From positions 16,235-80,234 of the forward strand of contig CALVUP010000001.1 in assembly GCA_944363635.1 (NCBI GenBank): a stretch of DNA of 64,000 bases, given 5' to 3'. The stretch's first letter is position 1. Each line of letters starts with the position of its first letter. Shown in pieces: positions 2,781 through 21,395 of the stretch. This DNA is from an uncultured Bacilli bacterium. GTDB taxonomy: Bacteria > Bacillota_I > Bacilli_A > RF39 > UBA660. A model generated the notes under the pieces. The model did no database searches. It saw only the letters and a list, made by a program, of their open reading frames with translations, and was not told the origin of the DNA. A program made the translations under genes and the position numbers.

Positions 2781-3320
2781 ATGAAAAAAATAGCTGTGTT
2801 TTTAATGGGATTGTTTTTATTAACTGGTTGTACATCTTTAATGAATACACCCACAGATAAAGTAGAGGAATATTTAGATAAATATAAAACCACAGATGAA
2901 GATGTTTTAGACCAATTAGAAGATGTTGTGGATGAAGTAGGAACGATGAATGATGATAATAAAGAAAGATACAAAGAATTAATGAAAAAACAATATCAAA
3001 ATTTATCTTACAAAATTAAAGATGAAACCATTGATGGCGATAATGCTACAGTTGAAGCTGAAATAGAAGTTTATGATTATAAAAGTTCAACCGATGAATC
3101 GGATCGTTATTTGAGTGAACATAATGATGAGTTTGTAGATGATGAAAATAATATTGATAATGATAAATTTATGACTTATAAACTTGATGCTCTTGATAAA
3201 GTAACTGATAAAGTAACTTATACCATTACTTTCTCATTAACCAAAGATGCCGATGGAAATTGGAAGCTGGATGATATTTCAGATGAAGATCGATTAAAAT
3301 TACATGGATTATATTCTTAA
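2781..3320 (+). CDS. lipoprotein of unknown function
   Basis: GGAGG RBS then MKKIAVFLMGLFLLTGCTS (signal peptide plus lipobox LTGC). Start trimmed from track 2730, in frame. Confidence 0.6.
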   Translation: MKKIAVFLMGLFLLTGCTSLMNTPTDKVEEYLDKYKTTDEDVLDQLEDVVDEVGTMNDDNKERYKELMKKQYQNLSYKIKDETIDGDNATVEAEIEVYDYKSSTDESDRYLSEHNDEFVDDENNIDNDKFMTYKLDALDKVTDKVTYTITFSLTKDADGNWKLDDISDEDRLKLHGLYS

Positions 3321-3376
3321 GAAACTGGAATAGTTTCTTTTTTTTATGAATATATTTAATTGAAAGAGGGGAGATT

Positions 3377-4189
3377 ATGAAACAAATTATACCTTTTAAT
3401 AAAGATATTGCATTCAAAACCATGATTGGAGAAATACAATCTATATCTTTAGAACATACTTTAAAAATAGAGGAAGATAACAATATTAAAGGGGATTTTA
3501 TTGTTAGTGGTAGTTATAAAATGACAGAAGCTTCTACCATTGCCGAAGAATTTTCTTATAAAATACCAGTGGATATTTATATTGATGAACAATACAATTT
3601 AGAAGATGCTACGATAGATATTGATGATTTCAAATATAGCATAGTCAATGATGATACTTTAGAAGTAAAAATAGATGTTGTACTTGATCACATGCAAGTG
3701 ATTGAACCTATAAGTGATATTAGTACTGATGAAGAAGTCATTCGTACACATCTAGATAAAGAGTATTTAAAACGAAAAGAAGATCTTCAAGATGTTACCG
3801 AGCAAACACAAAATGAAGAAGAAAAAGAAGAACTACTAGAATCTAAGAAAGAAGAGGAAACTTCTATGCGAAATACGAGTGATAAACAGAATAGTTCAGA
3901 ACAAATTTATACAACAAAAAATAAAGAAATGGTAGATGAGATACAAATTCCAATAGAAACATCCGATACGAAAGAACAAGAACCTGTAGAATCTTTATTT
4001 AGTAAATTTAGTGATGAAGAAGATAGCTATGCCACTTACAAAGTATATATTGTAAGAGAAAATGATAATTTAGAATCGATTATGGAAAAATACAATGTTT
4101 CTGTAGATGAACTTAGAGAGTACAATAACATTGATGATTTAAAAATAAATGATAAGCTAATCATACCATCTCATAATGAACACGCTTAG
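3377..4189 (+). CDS. SpoVID-like protein (SPOCS-like N-terminus, C-terminal LysM)
   Basis: N-terminus resembles the SpoVID/SPOCS region and the C-terminus carries LysM ('YKVYIVRENDNLESIMEKYNVSVDELREYNNI'). Followed by a CotS/YsxE-like gene, as in Bacillus spoVID-ysxE. Confidence 0.45.
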   Translation: MKQIIPFNKDIAFKTMIGEIQSISLEHTLKIEEDNNIKGDFIVSGSYKMTEASTIAEEFSYKIPVDIYIDEQYNLEDATIDIDDFKYSIVNDDTLEVKIDVVLDHMQVIEPISDISTDEEVIRTHLDKEYLKRKEDLQDVTEQTQNEEEKEELLESKKEEETSMRNTSDKQNSSEQIYTTKNKEMVDEIQIPIETSDTKEQEPVESLFSKFSDEEDSYATYKVYIVRENDNLESIMEKYNVSVDELREYNNIDDLKINDKLIIPSHNEHA

Positions 4190-5941: not shown

Positions 5942-6197
5942 TTTACAAAATTCAAATTATCCTGTATAATACGTTTATAAATGCGTTGGATTGAGGAGTA
6001 TATTTATAAGAGTTTAAGAGAGTTATCGTTTGGTGGGAGATAATACTTAAATAAATAGAAGGTAGCAATCAAGTAGAATTTTTGAGAAATCGAAAGTAGA
6101 AAATTCCGTATCTCGCGTTAAGAGAAAGAGGTTATTATAAATAATAAACTAAGGTGGTACCACGAAAGATTCGTCCTTATGATGAATCTTTTTTTAT
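5942..6197 (+). promoter_or_regulatory. T-box leader with promoter and terminator, upstream of the HD-domain gene and valS
   Basis: TTTACA (5942-5947), 17 nt, TGTATAAT (5963-5970). T-box core 'aactaaggtggtaccacg' at 6147-6164. Terminator stem aagattc (6166-6172) / gaatctt (6184-6190) plus T7 run. Specifier codon not resolved. Confidence 0.65.
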
Positions 6198-6211
6198 TGC
6201 TTGGAGGGATT

Positions 6212-6946
6212 ATGGATAAATATATAGAAGCATTTGAAAACTATGTAGCATCATTTGATCTCGAGGTTTCACAGTTAAAAAGAAAAAAAGAACATACTTA
6301 TCGGGTCATAAAACTTTGTATGGAGATTGCCAAGTCTCTACAAATGAATGATCATGATGTTTTCCTTATGAAATTAATTGGCTTGTATCATGATATAGGT
6401 CGTTTTGATCAATTCAAACAGTTTTCTAAATTCAATGATTCTGAAACATATGATCATGCTTCTAAAGGAGTAATAATTTTAAATACTTTACAAATATTAG
6501 ATGATTTAGAAGAAAAAGATTTAATTTTAAAAGCTATTGAAAATCATAATCAAATCAAATTAGAAGAAAATCTTTCTCCAAGAGAAAAGCAGTTCTGCGA
6601 GATCATAAGAGATGCAGATAAACTTGATATATTAAACTTAGTAATCGAAGGTAAAATTAAGATGAATCCTTATGATGAAAAATATAGTGAGAAAGCTGTC
6701 CAAACGATTTTGAATGGAGAATGCATCGATTTAAAAGAATATCCAAGAAAGGTCGATCAATCTTTAGTAAAAATAGGATTGATGAATGATATTGTATTTC
6801 CGTTTTCGAAACAATATATTCTAAAAAATAATATGATTGATGAGTTAATAGAAATTTATATAAAGAATAACCCAAAAGAAAAAGATACATTAGAAAAAAT
6901 AAAGAAGAAAGTAAAAGAAAGGATGAATGATACAAATGTTAGATAA
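6212..6946 (+). CDS. HD-domain phosphohydrolase
   Basis: 'LIGLYHDIGRFDQF' HD motif. Start moved from 6179, which lies inside the T-box terminator, to ATG 6212 with a GGAGGG RBS. Confidence 0.6.
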   Translation: MDKYIEAFENYVASFDLEVSQLKRKKEHTYRVIKLCMEIAKSLQMNDHDVFLMKLIGLYHDIGRFDQFKQFSKFNDSETYDHASKGVIILNTLQILDDLEEKDLILKAIENHNQIKLEENLSPREKQFCEIIRDADKLDILNLVIEGKIKMNPYDEKYSEKAVQTILNGECIDLKEYPRKVDQSLVKIGLMNDIVFPFSKQYILKNNMIDELIEIYIKNNPKEKDTLEKIKKKVKERMNDTNVR

Positions 6947-9365
6947 AAAATATAATTTTAAAGAAAAAGAAGAAAAATGGGAGAAATATTGGGAAGAGAA
7001 TAATATTTATGAATTTAAGCCTGATCATAGAAAGGTTTATTCTATCGATACCCCGCCACCAACTGTAAATGGAAAAATTCATATAGGACATATATTTTCT
7101 TATTCACAAGCTGAAATGATTGCAAGATATAAAAGAATGATGGGATACAATGTTTTTTATCCTTTTGGTTTTGATGATAATGGGCTTCCAAGTGAGCGAC
7201 TTGTCGAAAGAGAACAAGGAAAAAAGGCTCATGAAATAGGAAGAGAAGAATTCTCAAAACTTTGTTATGATACTACGAATAAATATGAAGCGGAGTTTAA
7301 AAAACTATTTAAACGTGCTGGATTTAGTGCAGATGTAGATCATGCTTATAAAACAGTAAGTCCATCTAGTTCTAAGATCAGTCAATTATCTTTTTTAGAA
7401 CTTGTAGAAAAGGGACATTGCTATCATAAAGAAAGTCCTGCTCTTTGGTGTAGTGAATGTTTAACTTCTATTGCTCAAGCCGAGTTAGAAACTAAAACGA
7501 TAAAAACAACATTTAATTACATTCATTTTTATACCAAAGAAGATCATGAAGAATTTACCATTGCGACCACTAGACCCGAACTTCTTCCAGCTATTGTTTG
7601 TGTATTTGTAAATCCAAGTGATGAAAAACATAAACATTTAATTGGTAAGACGGCTTGCATTCCGGTCGTAGAAGAAGAAGTACCAATTCTTGCCGATGAA
7701 AAAGTTGCCATTGATAAAGGTACAGGTGTCGTTATGTGTTGTACGTTTGGAGATCAAACCGATATTGAATGGTGGAAAAAATACAATTTGCCACTTAAGA
7801 ATATCTTTACAAAAGATGGGCATATTGTAGATACAGTAAAAAATTATGGTGGATTAACCATTAAACAAGCTAGAAAACAGATCATTGAGGATATTAAAGA
7901 AGCCGGATATTTAGTAAAAGTAGAAGATTTGGAGCATGAAGTACAAACGCATGAGCGATGCGGAAGAGAAGTAGAATATGCTGTTATGAATCAATGGTTT
8001 ATTGATATCATGAATCATAAAGAAGATTTCTTACGTATTGGGGATGAAATCAATTGGTATCCAAAACACATGCAAGCAAGATACAACGAATGGGTAGAAA
8101 ATATCATGTGGGATTGGTGTATTTCAAGACAAAGATATTTTGGTGTACCATTTCCTGTATGGTATTGTAAAGATTGTGGTGAACCTATTTTCGCAAGAAA
8201 AGAAGATTTACCAGTCAATCCACTTGTAGATAAACCTCCTGTAGAAAAGTGTCCAAAATGCGGATCTTCTGAATTCATAGGAGAAACAGATATTATGGAT
8301 ACATGGCAAACATCTTCTGTTACACCTTTAATTAATATGAAATATGGAGAAAAAGACAACCTAGAAGACATTTTAAAACCAATGTCCTTAAGATGCAATG
8401 CCCATGATATCATTCGTACTTGGGATTTCTATAGTATTGTAAAAAGTTATTATACCTTTCTTCAAAAACCTTGGGAAAATGTAATGATTTCCGGATTTGT
8501 AATGGCCGATAAAGGAGAAAAAATCTCTAAAAGTAAAAACAATTCTAAAATGGAACCATTTGAATTATTAGAACAGTATGGAGCGGATATTGTTCGTTAC
8601 TGGGCTGGATCTGGTAAATTAGGTACCGATATCATCTTTAATGATGAAACATTCTTAAGAGGAAAGAAATTGATCAATAAGATTTGGAATGTATCTAAAT
8701 TTATCGAAATGCATTTACAAGATTACAAAGACAAAGAAATTAAAAATTATGAATACATGGATCGTTTTATTTTAGCAAAATACAAAAAAATGGAAGAAGC
8801 TTTCTTAAAATATTTAGATGAATATGAAATTGGGCTTGCTTTAAATATTTTAGAAAAATTCTTCTGGGAATTCTGTGATAATTACATTGAAATTGTAAAA
8901 CATAGATTGTATAGGCCAGAAGAGTTTGGAGAAGAAGCACGTTATTCCGGACAAAAAACCATTTATACTTTGCTTTATAAATTGTTACAAGACTTCTCTA
9001 TTTTCTTCCCATTTATCACAGAAGAAATTTATCAAGATTTATATAAGAAAGAAAAATCTATTCATTTAACAACGATTGAGCCATTAGAAGTCTCTTACGA
9101 AGAAGAAAGAAAAAACGGTGATTTATTATTAGAAATCATCAGTGTTTGCAGAGGAGAAAAAACCAAAAACAATGTATCTTTAAAAACACCTATCAAAAAC
9201 CTTGAACTTGGTTTATCAAAAGAGTTAAATCAAGCTTTAGAAGAAGCCATAAAAGATATAAAAGCTACATTATTTATCGAAAATATGAGTCGAAAAGAAA
9301 TAGATTCTTCTTATGAAATTTATAAGATTGAATTAGATTTGGAAGAAAAAAATGGAGGAGAATAA
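6927..9365 (+). CDS. valS: valine--tRNA ligase
   Basis: 'PPPTVNGKIHIGH' (HIGH), 'KISKSKNN' (KMSKS) and valS-type editing/CP1 regions. Start ambiguous by about 9 nt (ATG 6927 or 6936). Confidence 0.9.
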   Translation: MIQMLDKKYNFKEKEEKWEKYWEENNIYEFKPDHRKVYSIDTPPPTVNGKIHIGHIFSYSQAEMIARYKRMMGYNVFYPFGFDDNGLPSERLVEREQGKKAHEIGREEFSKLCYDTTNKYEAEFKKLFKRAGFSADVDHAYKTVSPSSSKISQLSFLELVEKGHCYHKESPALWCSECLTSIAQAELETKTIKTTFNYIHFYTKEDHEEFTIATTRPELLPAIVCVFVNPSDEKHKHLIGKTACIPVVEEEVPILADEKVAIDKGTGVVMCCTFGDQTDIEWWKKYNLPLKNIFTKDGHIVDTVKNYGGLTIKQARKQIIEDIKEAGYLVKVEDLEHEVQTHERCGREVEYAVMNQWFIDIMNHKEDFLRIGDEINWYPKHMQARYNEWVENIMWDWCISRQRYFGVPFPVWYCKDCGEPIFARKEDLPVNPLVDKPPVEKCPKCGSSEFIGETDIMDTWQTSSVTPLINMKYGEKDNLEDILKPMSLRCNAHDIIRTWDFYSIVKSYYTFLQKPWENVMISGFVMADKGEKISKSKNNSKMEPFELLEQYGADIVRYWAGSGKLGTDIIFNDETFLRGKKLINKIWNVSKFIEMHLQDYKDKEIKNYEYMDRFILAKYKKMEEAFLKYLDEYEIGLALNILEKFFWEFCDNYIEIVKHRLYRPEEFGEEARYSGQKTIYTLLYKLLQDFSIFFPFITEEIYQDLYKKEKSIHLTTIEPLEVSYEEERKNGDLLLEIISVCRGEKTKNNVSLKTPIKNLELGLSKELNQALEEAIKDIKATLFIENMSRKEIDSSYEIYKIELDLEEKNGGE

Positions 9366-9813
9366 AATGCCAAAGAAAGAACAAGAGTAAGATCAAAGAA
9401 ATCGCAAAAGATCATAAAATGGTGTCTGCGGTTAAAAACATTAGTAAATTTTCCTTGGATAAAGATCAAGCAGAATTATTAAAAAATACAGTTTAAATAA
9501 GAATGTTTTACAAACTATGAGGGTGCTAGATCAAAAAGATTGTATACAAAGTTTACAAGAAGATACTTTTGATAATCAAAAATTAGAACAAGAGTATAAT
9601 AGGGCGATTGAAATAGGAACAAAACCTAAGAGTCTTAAAAAGACCATGACAGAAATGTATAGACAAAAATAAGAAAATATGCTATTCTGTATATAGATGA
9701 AGAAAACTTCATAAAATAAAAAAGGGAATGCTTAATTGGCGATTGAGCACTTACCTGTATATGGTTGCACTTAATCTAGGATTGAGTGCTGTTTTCTTTT
9801 ATAAGCTTACTTC

Positions 9814-9891
9814 TTACAAAGTAAAAAGTAAAGATATAAGTAAGAAGATAATAATGAATAACGTAAAGATTAAAAAATCTTTTTTAAACAT
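9814..9891 (-). CDS. candidate type I toxin-like small hydrophobic peptide, 25 aa (locus A)
   Basis: GGAGGTGG RBS 4 nt before ATG. MFKKDFLIFTLFIIIFLLISLLFTL. Minus-strand TGTATAAT at 9952-9959. Convergent plus promoter TAGACA-17-TATTCT at 9660-9688. Confidence 0.35.
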   Translation of the reverse strand: MFKKDFLIFTLFIIIFLLISLLFTL

Positions 9892-10051
9892 ATTACCACC
9901 TCCAATCGTTATGAATGAAGGCAAGCACTCTTATTAAACATTCCATGTTCTATTATACAATAAGTAAACCTTGATAACAATCGAACAAAAGAAAAATATA
10001 TTACCAAATAGAACTATAGACAAAAATAAGAAAATATGCTATTCTGTATAT

Positions 10052-10167
10052 AGATGAAGAAAACTTCATAAAATAAAAAAGGGAACATTCAGTTTTGCAA
10101 AGTTGAATGTCTACCCTAATTAAACTGAGATAGACATTTAAGTCAAGGACTTAAGTGTCATTTTTTT
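10052..10167 (+). ncRNA. candidate antisense RNA of TA-like locus B
   Basis: Promoter TAGACA (10017-10022), 17 nt, TATTCT (10040-10045). 5' hairpin 'aacattcag...ttgaatgt'. Terminator stem gacatttaagt/acttaagtgtc at 10133-10159 plus T7, overlapping the 3' end of the minus-strand peptide gene. Confidence 0.35.
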
Positions 10168-10250
10168 ATTACAATTATCATAATGATAAAAAGGAACAAA
10201 ATGATAGAAATGAATTTTAGAACTTTTATGATAAAAGTTTTAGTTTTCAT
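10158..10250 (-). CDS. candidate type I toxin-like peptide, 30 aa (locus B)
   Basis: GGAGG RBS. MKTKTFIIKVLKFISIILFLFIIMIIVIKK. Minus-strand TGTATAAT at 10317-10324. The paralogue at 20919-21011 conserves the peptide despite an indel in the 5' UTR. Confidence 0.55.
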   Translation of the reverse strand: MKTKTFIIKVLKFISIILFLFIIMIIVIKK

Positions 10251-10471
10251 TTTATCAAACCTCCTCTCTGTATGAGATTTGGTAGACACTCAACAACTGG
10301 TATTACCTTAATCTTTATTATACAATAAGTAAACTTTGTACACAATGAAATCAGAATGATTTGCGTTGTAAGATTTTACCAAATTTATTTTCAATTACAA
10401 ACTTTGAAAACCTTGTAAATTATATAAAAATGTGCGATAATATAAGGGATTTATGTATAAGGAGGGAGAAT

Positions 10472-12217
10472 ATGAACGATACGCAGAGTATGGATGTTAT
10501 TAATCAAATCCGAAGCAAAGTCGATATTGTTGATATCATATCGGAATATCTCCCTCTAATGCAAAGAGGAAAGAATTTTTTTGGCGTTTGTCCTTTTCAT
10601 GATGATACGCATCCTTCAATGAGTGTCTCTCGTGAAAAGCAAATTTATAAATGCTTCTCTTGTGGCGCAAGTGGTAACGTATTTAACTTTATTATGGATT
10701 ATGAACATGTATCTTTTAGAGAAGCTCTTGTGATACTAGCAAACAAAACGGGAATTGATATTGGAAATGTACATGTAAAAAAAGAAAATAATAAATATGA
10801 AGAATTTTATAAAATTTATGATCTTGCTTTAAAATTTTTTCAAAACAATATAAATACTGCCCAAGGTAGACAAGCCAAAGAATATTTAGAACAAAGACAA
10901 ATTGATGAATCCATTATTAAAGAGTTTTCAATAGGGCTTGCTTTATCTTCAAGAGATAGTCTTCTTACCTTATTAACAAAGAAAAAGTATAGCAACAAAT
11001 TATTAAATGAACTCGGATTAACAGTAAACAATTATGATAATTTTATTGATCGTATTATTTTCCCACTTTGGGACGCAAATGGAAGAGTTGTTGGATTTAG
11101 TGGAAGAATTTATCATCCAAATAGCAACCAAAATAAATATGTAAACACCAAAGAAACGCCTATTTTTAAAAAAGGGCAAACAATATATAATTACCATAGA
11201 GCACGTGATTATGCAAGACGGGATAAGAGTATCATTATTATGGAAGGTTTTATGGATGTAATTCGTGCTTATACGATTGGAGTAAAAAATGTAGTGGCTT
11301 TAATGGGGACCGCTATGACCAAAGAGCAAATTCAATTAATTAAGCGCTTATCCAATCAAGTCATTCTTTGTTTTGATGGAGATGATGCAGGGCGTAAGGC
11401 GACACTTACAAATGGTGAATTATTGGTAAAAGCAGGAGTAAAAAAAATTAAGGTAATTGCGCTTGAAAATAATGAAGATCCGGATACCTATATTATTAAA
11501 AACAAAGGGGAAAAGTTTAAAGCACTCATTGAAAATGCAATGAATTATAGTGATTATAAAATCAATTCTTTAAAAATAGGCATTAATTTTAATAGTGATA
11601 TTGAGAAAAGTAACTATATCAATCAAGTCATAAAAGAGGCTTCTATGATAAAAGATGAAATTCGTGTAGAGATTCTATTAAAAAACCTTGCAAAAGAGTT
11701 TGATTTGAGTTATAATACCCTAGAAAAAAGATTAATGGAATTCAAATCCGATGAAGAAAAAAAACAAGAAAAAATAGATATACCAAAAGTGGAAAAACCA
11801 AAGCATAATAAATATGAAAAAGCAACCTATGAATATCTATATTATATGTTGGTAAATGAAAAAGCCATTATTTATTATGATCAAGAAAATATCTTTTTTC
11901 CAATTGAAAAGGCAAGATTTTTAGCATCTGAAATATCCTATTATTATAAAAAATATGGTAGAATTACAATTGCTGATTTTTATACTTATTTACAAGATAA
12001 AAAAGATTTACTTGCTTTATTGAATATTGTATTAACTTATGATAAAAAAGAACAGATTAATCAAGAAGATATCGAAGCTTTAGCTAAAGTGATACGAGAG
12101 TATAATGTGGTCCAAGAAATAAAAAGATTAAAGGAAAAAATGAAAAATGTAATAGATCCTTTAGAAAAAGCCAAAATAGCAGATGAGATAAGAAAGTTAA
12201 AAATAGGGAGTGTGTGA
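10472..12217 (+). CDS. dnaG: DNA primase
   Basis: Zinc-ribbon '[34 protein letters not shown]' and a TOPRIM region. AAGGAGGG RBS at ATG 10472; the track's upstream TTG extension was rejected. Confidence 0.9.
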
Positions 12218-20562: not shown

Positions 20563-20636
20563 TGCCCCATAGCCAAGCGGTAAGGCGCTGGACTCTGACT
20601 CCAGGAGCGTTAGTTCGAATCTAACTGGGGCAGCCA
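20563..20636 (+). tRNA. tRNA-Gln (anticodon CUG)
   Basis: Hand-folded. U1:A72 pair with G73 discriminator typical of tRNA-Gln. D-arm identical to B. subtilis tRNA-Gln. Anticodon loop cuCUGac. TTCGAAT T-loop. CCA encoded. Confidence 0.8.
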
Positions 20637-20639
20637 CAT

Positions 20640-20715
20640 GCCGAAATAGCTCAGTTGGTAGAGCAGCTGTCTCGTAATCAGCAGGTCGTAGGTTCAAGTC
20701 CTATTTTCGGCACCA
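20640..20715 (+). tRNA. tRNA-Thr (anticodon CGU)
   Basis: Cloverleaf gccgaaa...tttcggc-a-cca. D-arm gctcagttggtagagc. Anticodon loop ctCGTaa. Close to Bacillus tRNA-Thr. Confidence 0.85.
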
Positions 20716-20801
20716 GAAGAGTTTAATCTAAACATTTAGGTGTTTCGGATAATTTATAAATAGAACTTGTCAAAAGTTCTTTTTTATGCTATTATGAATA
20801 T

Positions 20802-20930
20802 GTCAAGGGAATTTGCATAAAATAAAAAAGGGAACATTCAGTTTCGTCAAGTTGAATGTCTACCTAATAAATTGCCTTATGGCACTTATTCAGCGACACT
20901 TATTCTAACGAATGAGTGTCATTTTTTTAT
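20802..20930 (+). ncRNA. candidate antisense RNA of TA-like locus C
   Basis: TTGTCA (20767-20772), 17 nt, TATTAT (20790-20795). Same 5' hairpin family as locus B. Terminator gacacttattc/gaatgagtgtc plus T7 at 20895-20930, with compensatory changes relative to locus B. Confidence 0.35.
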
Positions 20931-21011
20931 TACGACTATCATAATGATAAGGAGAAATAAAATGATAGTAATGAGCTTAAGAACTTTTATTATAAAAGCC
21001 TTAGTTTTCAT
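20919..21011 (-). CDS. candidate type I toxin-like peptide, 30 aa (locus C)
   Basis: GGAGG RBS. MKTKAFIIKVLKLITIILFLLIIMIVVIKK. 5' UTR 'accagttgttgagt' conserved with locus B. Confidence 0.55.
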   Translation of the reverse strand: MKTKAFIIKVLKLITIILFLLIIMIVVIKK

Positions 21012-21395
21012 CTTTATCAAACCTCCTCTCTATAAAGATTAGAGGTAGATACTCAACAACTGATATTCCCTATAAAAAGTATACTATTGAAGGCCTTAAA
21101 AAACAAGCAAACTACTATAATTTTAATAAAAATATTTTATAGCAAAATTTGTTATATTAGTGTTAGAATATTGCTGAAAATTATTCACTATTGTAAAAAT
21201 GTATGATATATTGTTACTGTACTAAGATGATGGTACTGATTTAATCTTGGGTTCAGTATCTAATCCCCTCAAGGCACCAGATTGATAATAAACTCGAACT
21301 TTACTACAGAAAACAATCTTTTGAGATTGTTTTTTTATGTTATAATTAAAAAAGAGAAGTATCCCATAAAACAATACATAGAGGATGTGATTTCT

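Follow-up and report, generated by a model that had tools for sequence, protein, structure and literature searches.

We describe here 'module B', a compact cassette at about positions 10017-10345 of a stretch of 64,000 nucleotides (nt) of DNA from an uncultured Bacilli bacterium (GTDB lineage Bacteria; Bacillota_I; Bacilli_A; RF39; UBA660; GenBank contig CALVUP010000001.1), the whole of which we call 'the window'. Module B encodes a hydrophobic peptide of 30 amino acids (aa) on the minus strand and, convergent with it, a predicted antisense RNA on the plus strand. We put the probability at roughly three in four that it is a chromosomal type I toxin-antitoxin-like cassette whose family is absent from curated libraries. 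The kind is a known one and the family apparently undescribed, because the layout fits known systems but neither the libraries nor the literature hold a match for it. The computed support comprises sequence features, conservation across a family, a coding signature, covariation in a helix that closes the messenger RNA (mRNA), a conserved antisense promoter with conserved hairpins, and the thermodynamics of the antisense duplex. The properties that mark the class can be recognized in it: a small (<60 aa), hydrophobic and truly coding peptide open reading frame (ORF); an antisense RNA gene, complementary to the mRNA and with a promoter and a terminator of its own, seen at the level of sequence and conservation; and a structured candidate toxin mRNA whose ribosome-binding site is, by prediction, sequestered. 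We infer, beyond this, that both RNAs are produced, that the peptide is toxic, that control is exerted through RNase III or a block to translation, and that some trigger releases the toxin.

All of the sequence features named in a preliminary description of this DNA are present at the positions it gave them, among them a minus-strand promoter, a GGAGG ribosome-binding site and a 30-aa hydrophobic peptide ending in KK. The -10 element of the peptide-mRNA promoter is a TATAAT at 10322-10317, within the string TGTATAAT. Its putative -35 element (TTGTGT, 10340-10345, minus strand, read from the sequence) is separated from it by a 17-nt spacer; only three of its six positions match, and for that reason it falls below the threshold of the promoter scan and is not listed there. 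The predicted mRNA is ∼241 nt long (10072-10312, minus strand), its ends inferred from the promoter and terminator. A 5' untranslated region (UTR) of ∼60 nt separates the TATAAT from the GGAGG Shine-Dalgarno (SD) sequence (10264-10260), and the ATG lies 9 nt downstream of the latter. The ORF (10250-10158) reads MKTKTFIIKVLKFISIILFLFIIMIIVIKK and ends with a TGA stop. Its product has a grand average of hydropathy of 1.81 and a net charge of +6, and is predicted to be a single-pass membrane peptide because a Lys-rich N-terminus is followed by a hydrophobic stretch of ∼17 residues and, at the C-terminus, by KK.

The plus-strand gene begins with the promoter TAGACA-17-TATTCT at 10017-10045, found by the promoter scan, with a TG before the -10. 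From it a small RNA (sRNA) of ∼116 nt with three hairpins (10052-10167) is predicted, close to the ∼115 nt proposed earlier; this is the antitoxin candidate. It ends at an intrinsic terminator, a hairpin at 10133-10159 with a stem of 12 base pairs (bp) followed by ATTTTTTT, the run of seven Ts lying at 10161-10167. The terminator scan found two terminators in 9300-10600, compared with 0.3 expected from shuffled sequence. This hairpin overlaps the stop codon of the peptide ORF, and it had been taken for a bidirectional terminator shared by both genes. That part of the preliminary description does not hold, because in the minus-strand reading UAUCUCAGUUU, and no U-run, comes after the hairpin, which there is internal to the mRNA. 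A separate conserved hairpin plus TTTTTTATTTT serves the mRNA at 10116-10070. The mRNA therefore runs on to that terminator, and the two convergent RNAs overlap by ∼96 nt (10072-10167), a region over which the sRNA is perfectly complementary to the mRNA. The 3' element of the mRNA (10116-10070, minus strand) is composed of GGGUAGACAUUCAAC-UUUGCAAA-ACUGAAUGUUCCC and then UUUUUUAUUUU, and has two possible folds: it may form a terminator hairpin locally, or supply the 3' strand to the closing helix discussed below.

Module B is one member of a large family. For comparative purposes we used an alignment, 'A3', of 98 modules from different species-representative genomes, made with MAFFT; a small third subfamily is misaligned in it. 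Conservation in A3 starts at the candidate toxin -10 and stops at the antisense -35, and the flanks on either side are unrelated. The conserved unit is therefore exactly promoter, mRNA, antisense RNA and promoter. The toxin-side TATAAT (columns 26-31) is mostly ≥90% conserved and its -35 poorly so; the GGAGG and the T-run at the mRNA 3' end are ≥90% conserved. The antisense promoter, mostly 80-99% conserved, has the consensus CTTGAaa-17-TGTTATTAT at a fixed position. The TTG of its -35 and the TG of its extended -10 are ≥90% conserved, and the other hexamer positions mostly 60-99%.

The peptide ORF is under purifying selection. Many positions of the peptide are ≥90% conserved across the family, and in A3 the fraction of single-base codon differences that are synonymous is 0.49 in the ORF frame versus 0.22 expected at random. 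In the two other sense frames the values are 25% and 11%, and in antisense they range over 16-30%. The three codon positions of the ORF have entropies of 0.56 / 0.33 / 0.77, and the stop occurs at the same codon throughout, as TGA in 70 of the 98 modules and as TAA or TAG in the other 28. We considered whether TGA might be read as Trp (genetic code 4) and rejected the idea, given the 28 homologues with TAA or TAG and the long genes of the window, which are intact under table 11.

Both RNAs are predicted to be strongly folded. The minimum free energy (MFE) of the module B mRNA is -60.9 kcal/mol (z = -5.4; none of 200 shuffles as good); mRNAs of the family average 240 nt. In its MFE and centroid structures alike, AGUUGUUGAGUGUCUACC, close to the 5' end, is paired with GGGUAGACAUUCAACU, close to the 3' end, and an outer segment pairs as well, to form a closing helix of ∼27 bp in which 10309-10281 (AAGGUAAUACCAGUUGUUGAGUGUCUACC) is joined to 10116-10081. 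The ensemble contains ∼24 expected 5'-3' pairs, and 91 of 96 homologous mRNAs have at least 15. Such a helix is supported, as a prediction from sequence, by covariation. Cognate 5' and 3' segments form duplexes of -33.7 kcal/mol, compared with -11.5 ± 3.2 kcal/mol for shuffled partners; duplexes within subfamilies reach -34.5 and -31.6 kcal/mol, and those across subfamilies -24 and -23 kcal/mol, a gain of about 10 kcal/mol for cognate pairs. When the helix is placed on A3, 85.5% of the alignment cells are standard pairs, compared with 32-52% when the partner is slid. Cells in which both bases have changed number 181, against 71 ± 10 in shuffles (0 of 500). Scored for covariation, the helix reaches 0.227, with shuffles at 0.129 and slid registers at no more than 0.079. 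Compensatory swaps are spread over several pairs (UA:50/GC:33, UA:55/GC:20, CG:44/UA:25, AU:64/GC:20 and GC:53/AU:23). A G.U pair at A3 columns 69:301 is retained in 87 of 98 modules, so that selection appears to act on the mRNA-strand RNA rather than on a DNA inverted repeat. These figures come from hand-specified helices and from alignment-free tests of per-sequence and cognate versus non-cognate energies. RNAalifold, applied to MAFFT alignments of the mRNA and of the sRNA, recovered hardly any consensus structure, since these alignments are broken up by indels and by a register shift of one column between subfamilies.

Within the 3' strand of the closing helix, the local terminator hairpin folds at -11.4 kcal/mol; it is 91% paired across the family and varies hardly at all in sequence. 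The two uppermost pairs of this hairpin are lost in 24 and 30 of the 98 modules, for the most part members of the subfamily whose 5' end covaries there. The terminator hairpin probably forms first, and the closing helix afterwards.

The antisense RNA of module B has an MFE of -32.8 kcal/mol (z = -5.5; again none of 200 shuffles as good). Its 5' hairpin (AUGAAG-AAAA-CUUCAU, 10054-10069) lies outside the overlap with the mRNA. Among the homologues, the first 24 nt of the sRNA fold at -3 kcal/mol or better in 87%, versus 4% of shuffles, and the hairpin is kept through 50 distinct sequences (e.g. GCAAG/CUUGC, AUGAGA/UCUCAU and AUGGA/UCCAU). An A-rich linker complementary to the U-run of the mRNA follows. 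The middle hairpin complements the closing helix's 3' strand exactly, and the terminator is the complement of the stop-codon hairpin. The terminator regions fold at a mean of -15.1 kcal/mol versus -5.1 kcal/mol for shuffles, and their stem is preserved across 59 distinct 3' arms. For the two predicted transcripts the intermolecular duplex is thermodynamically preferred: cofolding yields a duplex of 96 bp, at -189.5 kcal/mol versus -93.7 kcal/mol for the two RNAs apart (ΔΔG = -95.8 kcal/mol), in which the 5' segment of the mRNA refolds locally.

The SD is predicted to be mostly paired in the free mRNA, with a mean unpaired probability of 0.13 over 96 homologues, its partners being an upstream CCUCY tract or a CUCCUU tract within the ORF. 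When the region covered by the sRNA is forced to be single-stranded, as a mimic of the bound state, this probability falls from 0.13 to 0.07 (Wilcoxon p = 1.4e-8), and pairing of the SD with the upstream anti-SD rises from 3.0 to 4.0 of 5 nt. We also considered a strong switch, in which the real SD would be kept accessible by a pseudo-SD in the 3'UTR up to the moment of sRNA binding; it finds little support, the SD being predicted to be paired in both states.

The mechanism we propose runs as follows. The minus strand would give rise to an mRNA of ∼240 nt that closes on itself with its SD largely base-paired, and the closed form would be a compact, poorly translated transcript; an effect on stability is suggested by analogy with bsrG only. 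The plus strand would produce the antisense RNA of ∼116 nt from its own conserved promoter. This RNA would pair with the 3' 96 nt of the mRNA and, if the analogy with bsrG/SR4 is a good one, melt the 5'-3' helix, leaving a long, perfect duplex that may be a substrate for RNase III. The 5' segment so freed, with its anti-SD-like CCUCY/ACC tract, could then sequester the SD slightly more. Decay triggered by the duplex and a modest tightening of the SD would jointly keep synthesis of the peptide off.

Among known systems, bsrG/SR4 is the closest in detail. The bsrG mRNA is closed by a helix, P1, between nt 1-35 and 232-262; SR4 has complementarity to P1 in its 3' half, to the terminator and to stem-loop SL3; and SR4 binding extends the pairing of the bsrG SD from 4 to 8 bp, decay being dependent on RNase III (PMC3834814). 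In both systems the genes converge and the antisense RNA overlaps the 3' end of the mRNA, including the end of the ORF; the antitoxin, or candidate antitoxin, is complementary to the 3' half of the closing helix, to the terminator and to the stop-codon hairpin; sequestration of the SD is partial and increases upon binding; and the small, hydrophobic peptide has a basic C-terminus. That the candidate antitoxin covers both the 3' half of the closing helix and the terminator is a likeness in the way the two would work, and does not in itself speak for homology. The two differ in size (peptides of 30 versus 38 aa, mRNAs of ∼240 versus 294 nt, and sRNAs of ∼116 versus 180 nt) and in architecture, since in module B the terminator region doubles as the 3' strand of the closing helix, which in bsrG is a distinct segment upstream of the terminator. 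They differ, too, in host: uncultured gut bacteria whose genomes are labelled Bacilli or Tenericutes, versus the SPbeta prophage of Bacillus subtilis. No homology to BsrG, SR4 or bsrG was detected in Pfam, NCBIfam, PADLOC or Rfam, libraries in which the presence of BsrG/SR4 models is itself unconfirmed, so that a true relationship too faint to detect may exist. We propose, by analogy, that the module works like bsrG/SR4; homology is not demonstrated.

Other type I systems resemble module B less closely. In the Gram-positive 3'-overlap families (TxpA/RatA, BsrE-G-H, YonT and SprG/SprF) the antisense RNA lies 3' and overlaps part of the mRNA and the end of the ORF (PMC8594479). With txpA/RatA, bsrE/SR5, yonT/SR6 and sprG/SprF of Firmicutes the module shares this general genetic layout, to which the comparison of the RNAs was confined; the peptide family is a different one, without a Pfam, NCBIfam or Rfam match. 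The preliminary description had named three analogues, and two of them stand: bsrG-SR4 in detail, txpA-RatA in general layout. The third, par/Fst, does not, since the sRNA was not seen to be complementary to the 5' part of the mRNA. In hok/Sok (fbi-tac) and aapA1/IsoA1, of Proteobacteria and Helicobacter, the full-length toxin mRNA is locked 5' to 3' with its SD sequestered (PMC8309996), as is well established. The fold-back lock of the full-length mRNA is common to these and to module B, where both covariation and the ensemble point to it. They differ in that their antisense RNAs bind the 5' or ORF region and activation requires 3' trimming, whereas here the 3' strand of the lock would be the target. 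Of further hok-type features we saw none: the antisense RNA is at the 3' end, there is no mok-like leader ORF, and there is no Hok/Gef match in Pfam.

The extent of the family was gauged in several ways, and the figures are lower bounds. A degenerate DNA pattern (M-[KR]-x-[KR]-x-F-[IVM]-x-K-x-L...) identified at least 120 loci in species-representative genomes, answering the earlier suggestion that the peptide family be sought elsewhere; all of those listed encode the same peptide, nearly always of exactly 30 aa. With nhmmer, at least 139 full-length modules were found in 115 fetched stretches (labelled with an 'L' below) of up to 8 kb each. Twenty of these stretches carry two copies and two carry three. 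In L098, four module matches, three of them full-length, stand adjacent in a tandem array. Tandem or multiple copies and variable contexts of this kind are typical hallmarks of type I loci. At the protein level, a query with a 43-aa upstream-extended ORF returned the 30-aa relative P0001, and a profile of two peptides, run against 1.84 billion representative proteins (E-values up to 1e-3), matched 42 representatives. Exact look-up of the 30-aa peptide yielded no record. A 28-mer from the 5' region of the sRNA, sought exactly, occurs in two metagenome contigs, each with a whole module beside a transfer-messenger RNA (tmRNA) gene, and has no match in genome contigs or viral contigs.

The hosts are almost all gut or rumen metagenome-assembled genomes (MAGs), two of which are complete chromosomes of 1.26 and 1.52 Mb. 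Their labels include uncultured Bacilli, Tenericutes, Bacillales, Erysipelotrichaceae, Mycoplasma sp. CAG:877, Candidatus Ventrenecus and Candidatus Onthousia. A few members of the family occur in MAGs with unrelated labels: Muribaculaceae (L014, L052 and L058), Cyanobacteria UBA6446 (L037), Roseburia (L030) and Clostridia (L039). These may reflect contamination during binning, mislabelling or horizontal transfer.

Public gene calls of the family (P0002-P0043) are often wrong. In some the ORF is extended upstream through the conserved 5'UTR (...VECLP...ERRFDK-MKTKTF); in others translation passes the TGA stop as Trp (...IKKWHL...), which suggests gene calling with code 4 on low-GC contigs; and P0017 fuses two tandem copies. 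One copy, in L026, is split within the peptide ORF (1266-1408 and 3307-3475) by an insertion of ∼1.9 kb encoding a 604-aa transposase of the ISL3 family (Pfam DDE_Tnp_ISL3 and Zn_ribbon_ISL3), and is a naturally inactivated member. Independent metagenome assemblies of the same organism as the window start in module A, the neighbour of module B (L001, ENA ERZ28615057 scaffold_210), or in a 71-nt repeat that the two share (L002, Logan ERR4096549_115133); the repeated cassette appears to fragment short-read assemblies.

Searches of the libraries support the earlier remark that the peptide family was not a recognized one. Four peptides of the family had no significant match in Pfam, NCBIfam or PADLOC (E up to 10), and Rfam, scanned over the window at the gathering threshold and over 9600-10420 by E-value, gave only noise at the locus, with no score close to gathering. 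A 24-mer from the 5'UTR and the degenerate peptide pattern had no match in viral contigs. Nor did blastn and tblastn find a match among plasmid and phage records, the tblastn query being one that the low-complexity filter may mask. A full-text literature search for the peptide strings, and for type I toxin-antitoxin pairs among these taxa, turned up no description, and the human-microbiome catalogues of small proteins and of structured RNAs that we examined contain no discussion of the family.

Several alternatives to the type I reading must be weighed. The one that survives best is that the peptide is a conserved, non-toxic, small membrane protein (e.g. a regulator or subunit of a membrane complex) whose level is tuned by a cis-antisense RNA. 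We regard this as unlikely, but it deserves attention, for strong conservation of the peptide across very many species with small genomes would suit a housekeeping protein too, and a faint likeness to MgtR was noted that falls short of significance (E = 0.13). Small proteins with housekeeping roles, however, are as a rule single-copy and syntenic, and this is not the behavior of the module: its contexts are unrelated, it often occurs as two or more tandem copies, and its paralogues diverge. The copy in L026, moreover, is split by an insertion sequence with no obvious replacement in the region examined. Closure of the mRNA, sequestration of the SD and a dedicated antisense RNA together form the pattern of type I toxins (PMC3834814, PMC8594479).

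It is much less probable that the cassette is a miniature mobile or repeat element, the inverted repeat being a DNA-level terminal repeat and the ORF and 'promoters' incidental. Such an element would be multi-copy and found in many contexts, as the module is; the inverted repeat is ∼27 bp, its arms ∼170 nt apart, and 25 of 139 copies lie just downstream of transfer RNA (tRNA) or tmRNA genes. Yet the conserved region is wider than the inverted repeat at either end, taking in two promoters and the sRNA 5' hairpin, the coding signature is clear and the length of the ORF fixed, and the retained G.U pairs (87/98 at 69:301) are functional only in RNA of the mRNA strand. The plasmid and phage collections and viral contigs, as noted, hold no match.

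A functional product of the plus strand is hardly credible. Its candidate is an antisense ORF of 30 aa at 10183-10275, and one antisense frame is indeed free of stops across the 90 nt of the ORF (10161-10250, plus strand) in 95 of 98 modules. This openness is automatic, because the sense peptide has no Tyr, His or Gln codons (a matter of the codon table); the synonymous fraction of this antisense frame is 0.30, versus 0.49 in the sense frame. The open frame does not speak for a real product of the plus strand, which the preliminary description had named as a possible refutation. The ORF also lies downstream of the conserved plus-strand terminator, and no SD was seen before it.

Equally hard to sustain is control of the par/Fst type, in which the antisense RNA would bind the 5' region of the mRNA through repeats and block initiation, the terminators serving for first contact only. 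There are likenesses to par of the Enterococcus plasmid pAD1, namely convergent transcription, facing and overlapping 3' hairpins, a peptide of ∼30 aa and an intramolecular stem that sequesters the SD, as in par RNA I (PMC8309996). The fit fails at the repeat that the 5' region of the mRNA has in common with the sRNA, which runs in one sense in both: GUUGAGUGUCUACC of the mRNA and GUUGAAUGUCUACC of the sRNA match in the same orientation and cannot pair there, so the complementarity is intramolecular, from 5'UTR to 3'UTR, and the intermolecular overlap is the perfect duplex of 96 nt. Unlike par, the module has neither direct repeats giving 5' complementarity nor a terminator shared bidirectionally, and no model of the Fst type or of Ldr matched in Pfam or NCBIfam (E up to 10).

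The type I toxin-antitoxin-like reading, first made in the preliminary description, thus draws on the coding ORF, the conserved antisense promoter and hairpins, the structured mRNA and the multi-copy contexts. Several points weigh against it. Small, conserved membrane peptides with antisense RNAs are not necessarily toxins. The -35 of the candidate toxin promoter in module B is weak (3/6), the ends of both transcripts are predicted from consensus elements, and the host bacteria are uncultured. The covariation counts rely on a MAFFT alignment in which part of helix 1 is out of register for one subfamily, and related sequences may outdo shuffles without there being any structure. The local terminator hairpin and the long-range helix compete for the same nucleotides. 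Finally, the predicted change in accessibility of the SD upon sRNA binding is small, and the anti-SD stem, while 84% paired, is without covariation.

If the type I reading is right, the family matters in several ways. Type I systems are on record from few lineages, T1TAdb listing 1894 loci in 24 families and 218 species (PMC8594479). To type I-like loci the present family adds well over 100 species of uncultured, small-genome gut and rumen bacteria labelled Bacilli or Tenericutes, bacteria in which a type I system appears to be undescribed so far. Natural covariation supports a bsrG/SR4-like RNA mechanism, in which the candidate antitoxin would attack the 3' strand of the closing helix, and suggests that this is a recurrent design rather than a peculiarity of Bacillus. 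The peptide is a compact candidate for a membrane-active toxin. On the practical side, gene callers mis-annotate the locus and the repeated module breaks assemblies.

Module B has two relatives in the window. Scored with nhmmer, module A lies at 9662-9956 (E = 8e-14), module B at 10019-10310 (E = 8e-64) and module C at 20766-21083 (E = 7e-78). A and B form a tandem in which B is second, and share 71 nt that are 100% identical (9658-9728 and 10015-10085), comprising the antisense promoter and the first 33 nt of the sRNA. Module A (9658-10014) is a divergent homologue, matched over its full length; its 25-aa peptide, MFKKDFLIFTLFIIIFLLISLLFTL (9891-9814, minus strand), belongs to a second subfamily (M-x-KKD[FL]LI...) that is also found beside B-type copies in L098, L122, L081, L036 and L089. 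The module A mRNA has 5'-3' pairing of its own between different sequences, GGAAUGUUUAAU and AUUAAGCAUUCC. Module C is near-consensus; its peptide, MKTKAFIIKVLKLITIILFLLIIMIVVIKK, is on the minus strand and its sRNA (∼20801-20932) on the plus strand. Genes for tRNA-Gln and tRNA-Thr (20563-20715) lie 51 nt upstream of it. In modelled duplexes the sRNA of B could bind the mRNA of C and vice versa (-87 and -94 kcal/mol), whereas copy A stands further apart.

Proximity to stable RNA genes recurs elsewhere. A tRNA or tmRNA gene occurs within 150 nt of 25 of the 139 full-length modules (e.g. L013, L018, L023, L032, L035, L073 and L123, L003/L004 for tmRNA, and 20640-20800 in the window), and in all 25 it stands just upstream of the antisense promoter, sharing the strand of the antisense RNA. 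A preference for the sRNA strand is seen in the neighboring protein-coding ORFs too, by 74 to 32 on one side and 75 to 39 on the other. Often, a covarying hairpin and T-run stand just upstream of the antisense -10 (A3 columns ∼380-400; e.g. AGAACTTGTCAAAAGTTCTTTTTT, window 20763-20795), with the -35 (TTGTCA/TTGACA) carried in the loop. It looks like a read-through terminator fused to the sRNA promoter, and is absent from module B. A speculative and rather doubtful interpretation is that the cassette is wired to tRNA transcription, such that read-through from growth-rate-controlled tRNA promoters could top up the antitoxin. Were this so, a fall in stable-RNA synthesis (during starvation or the stringent response) would release the toxin, and the module would act as a growth-rate sensor in gut bacteria of reduced genome. 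The fixed orientation could, alternatively, arise from site-specific insertion of a self-contained, mobile RNA-toxin cassette at the 3' flanks of tRNA genes.

The surroundings of module B itself, where G+C is ∼29%, are a plus-strand operon on one side and dnaG-sigA on the other. The operon comprises a T-box leader (5977-6181, 110.7 bits), an ORF for a 255-aa HD-domain protein (6179-6946) and one for a class I aminoacyl-tRNA synthetase of 812 aa (6927-9365), whose start the former overlaps by 20 nt. We considered whether the upstream ORF might be a frameshifted part of the synthetase and rejected this, the first ORF being a separate HD-domain protein. It is unusual for a T-box-controlled operon to begin with a gene for an HD protein.

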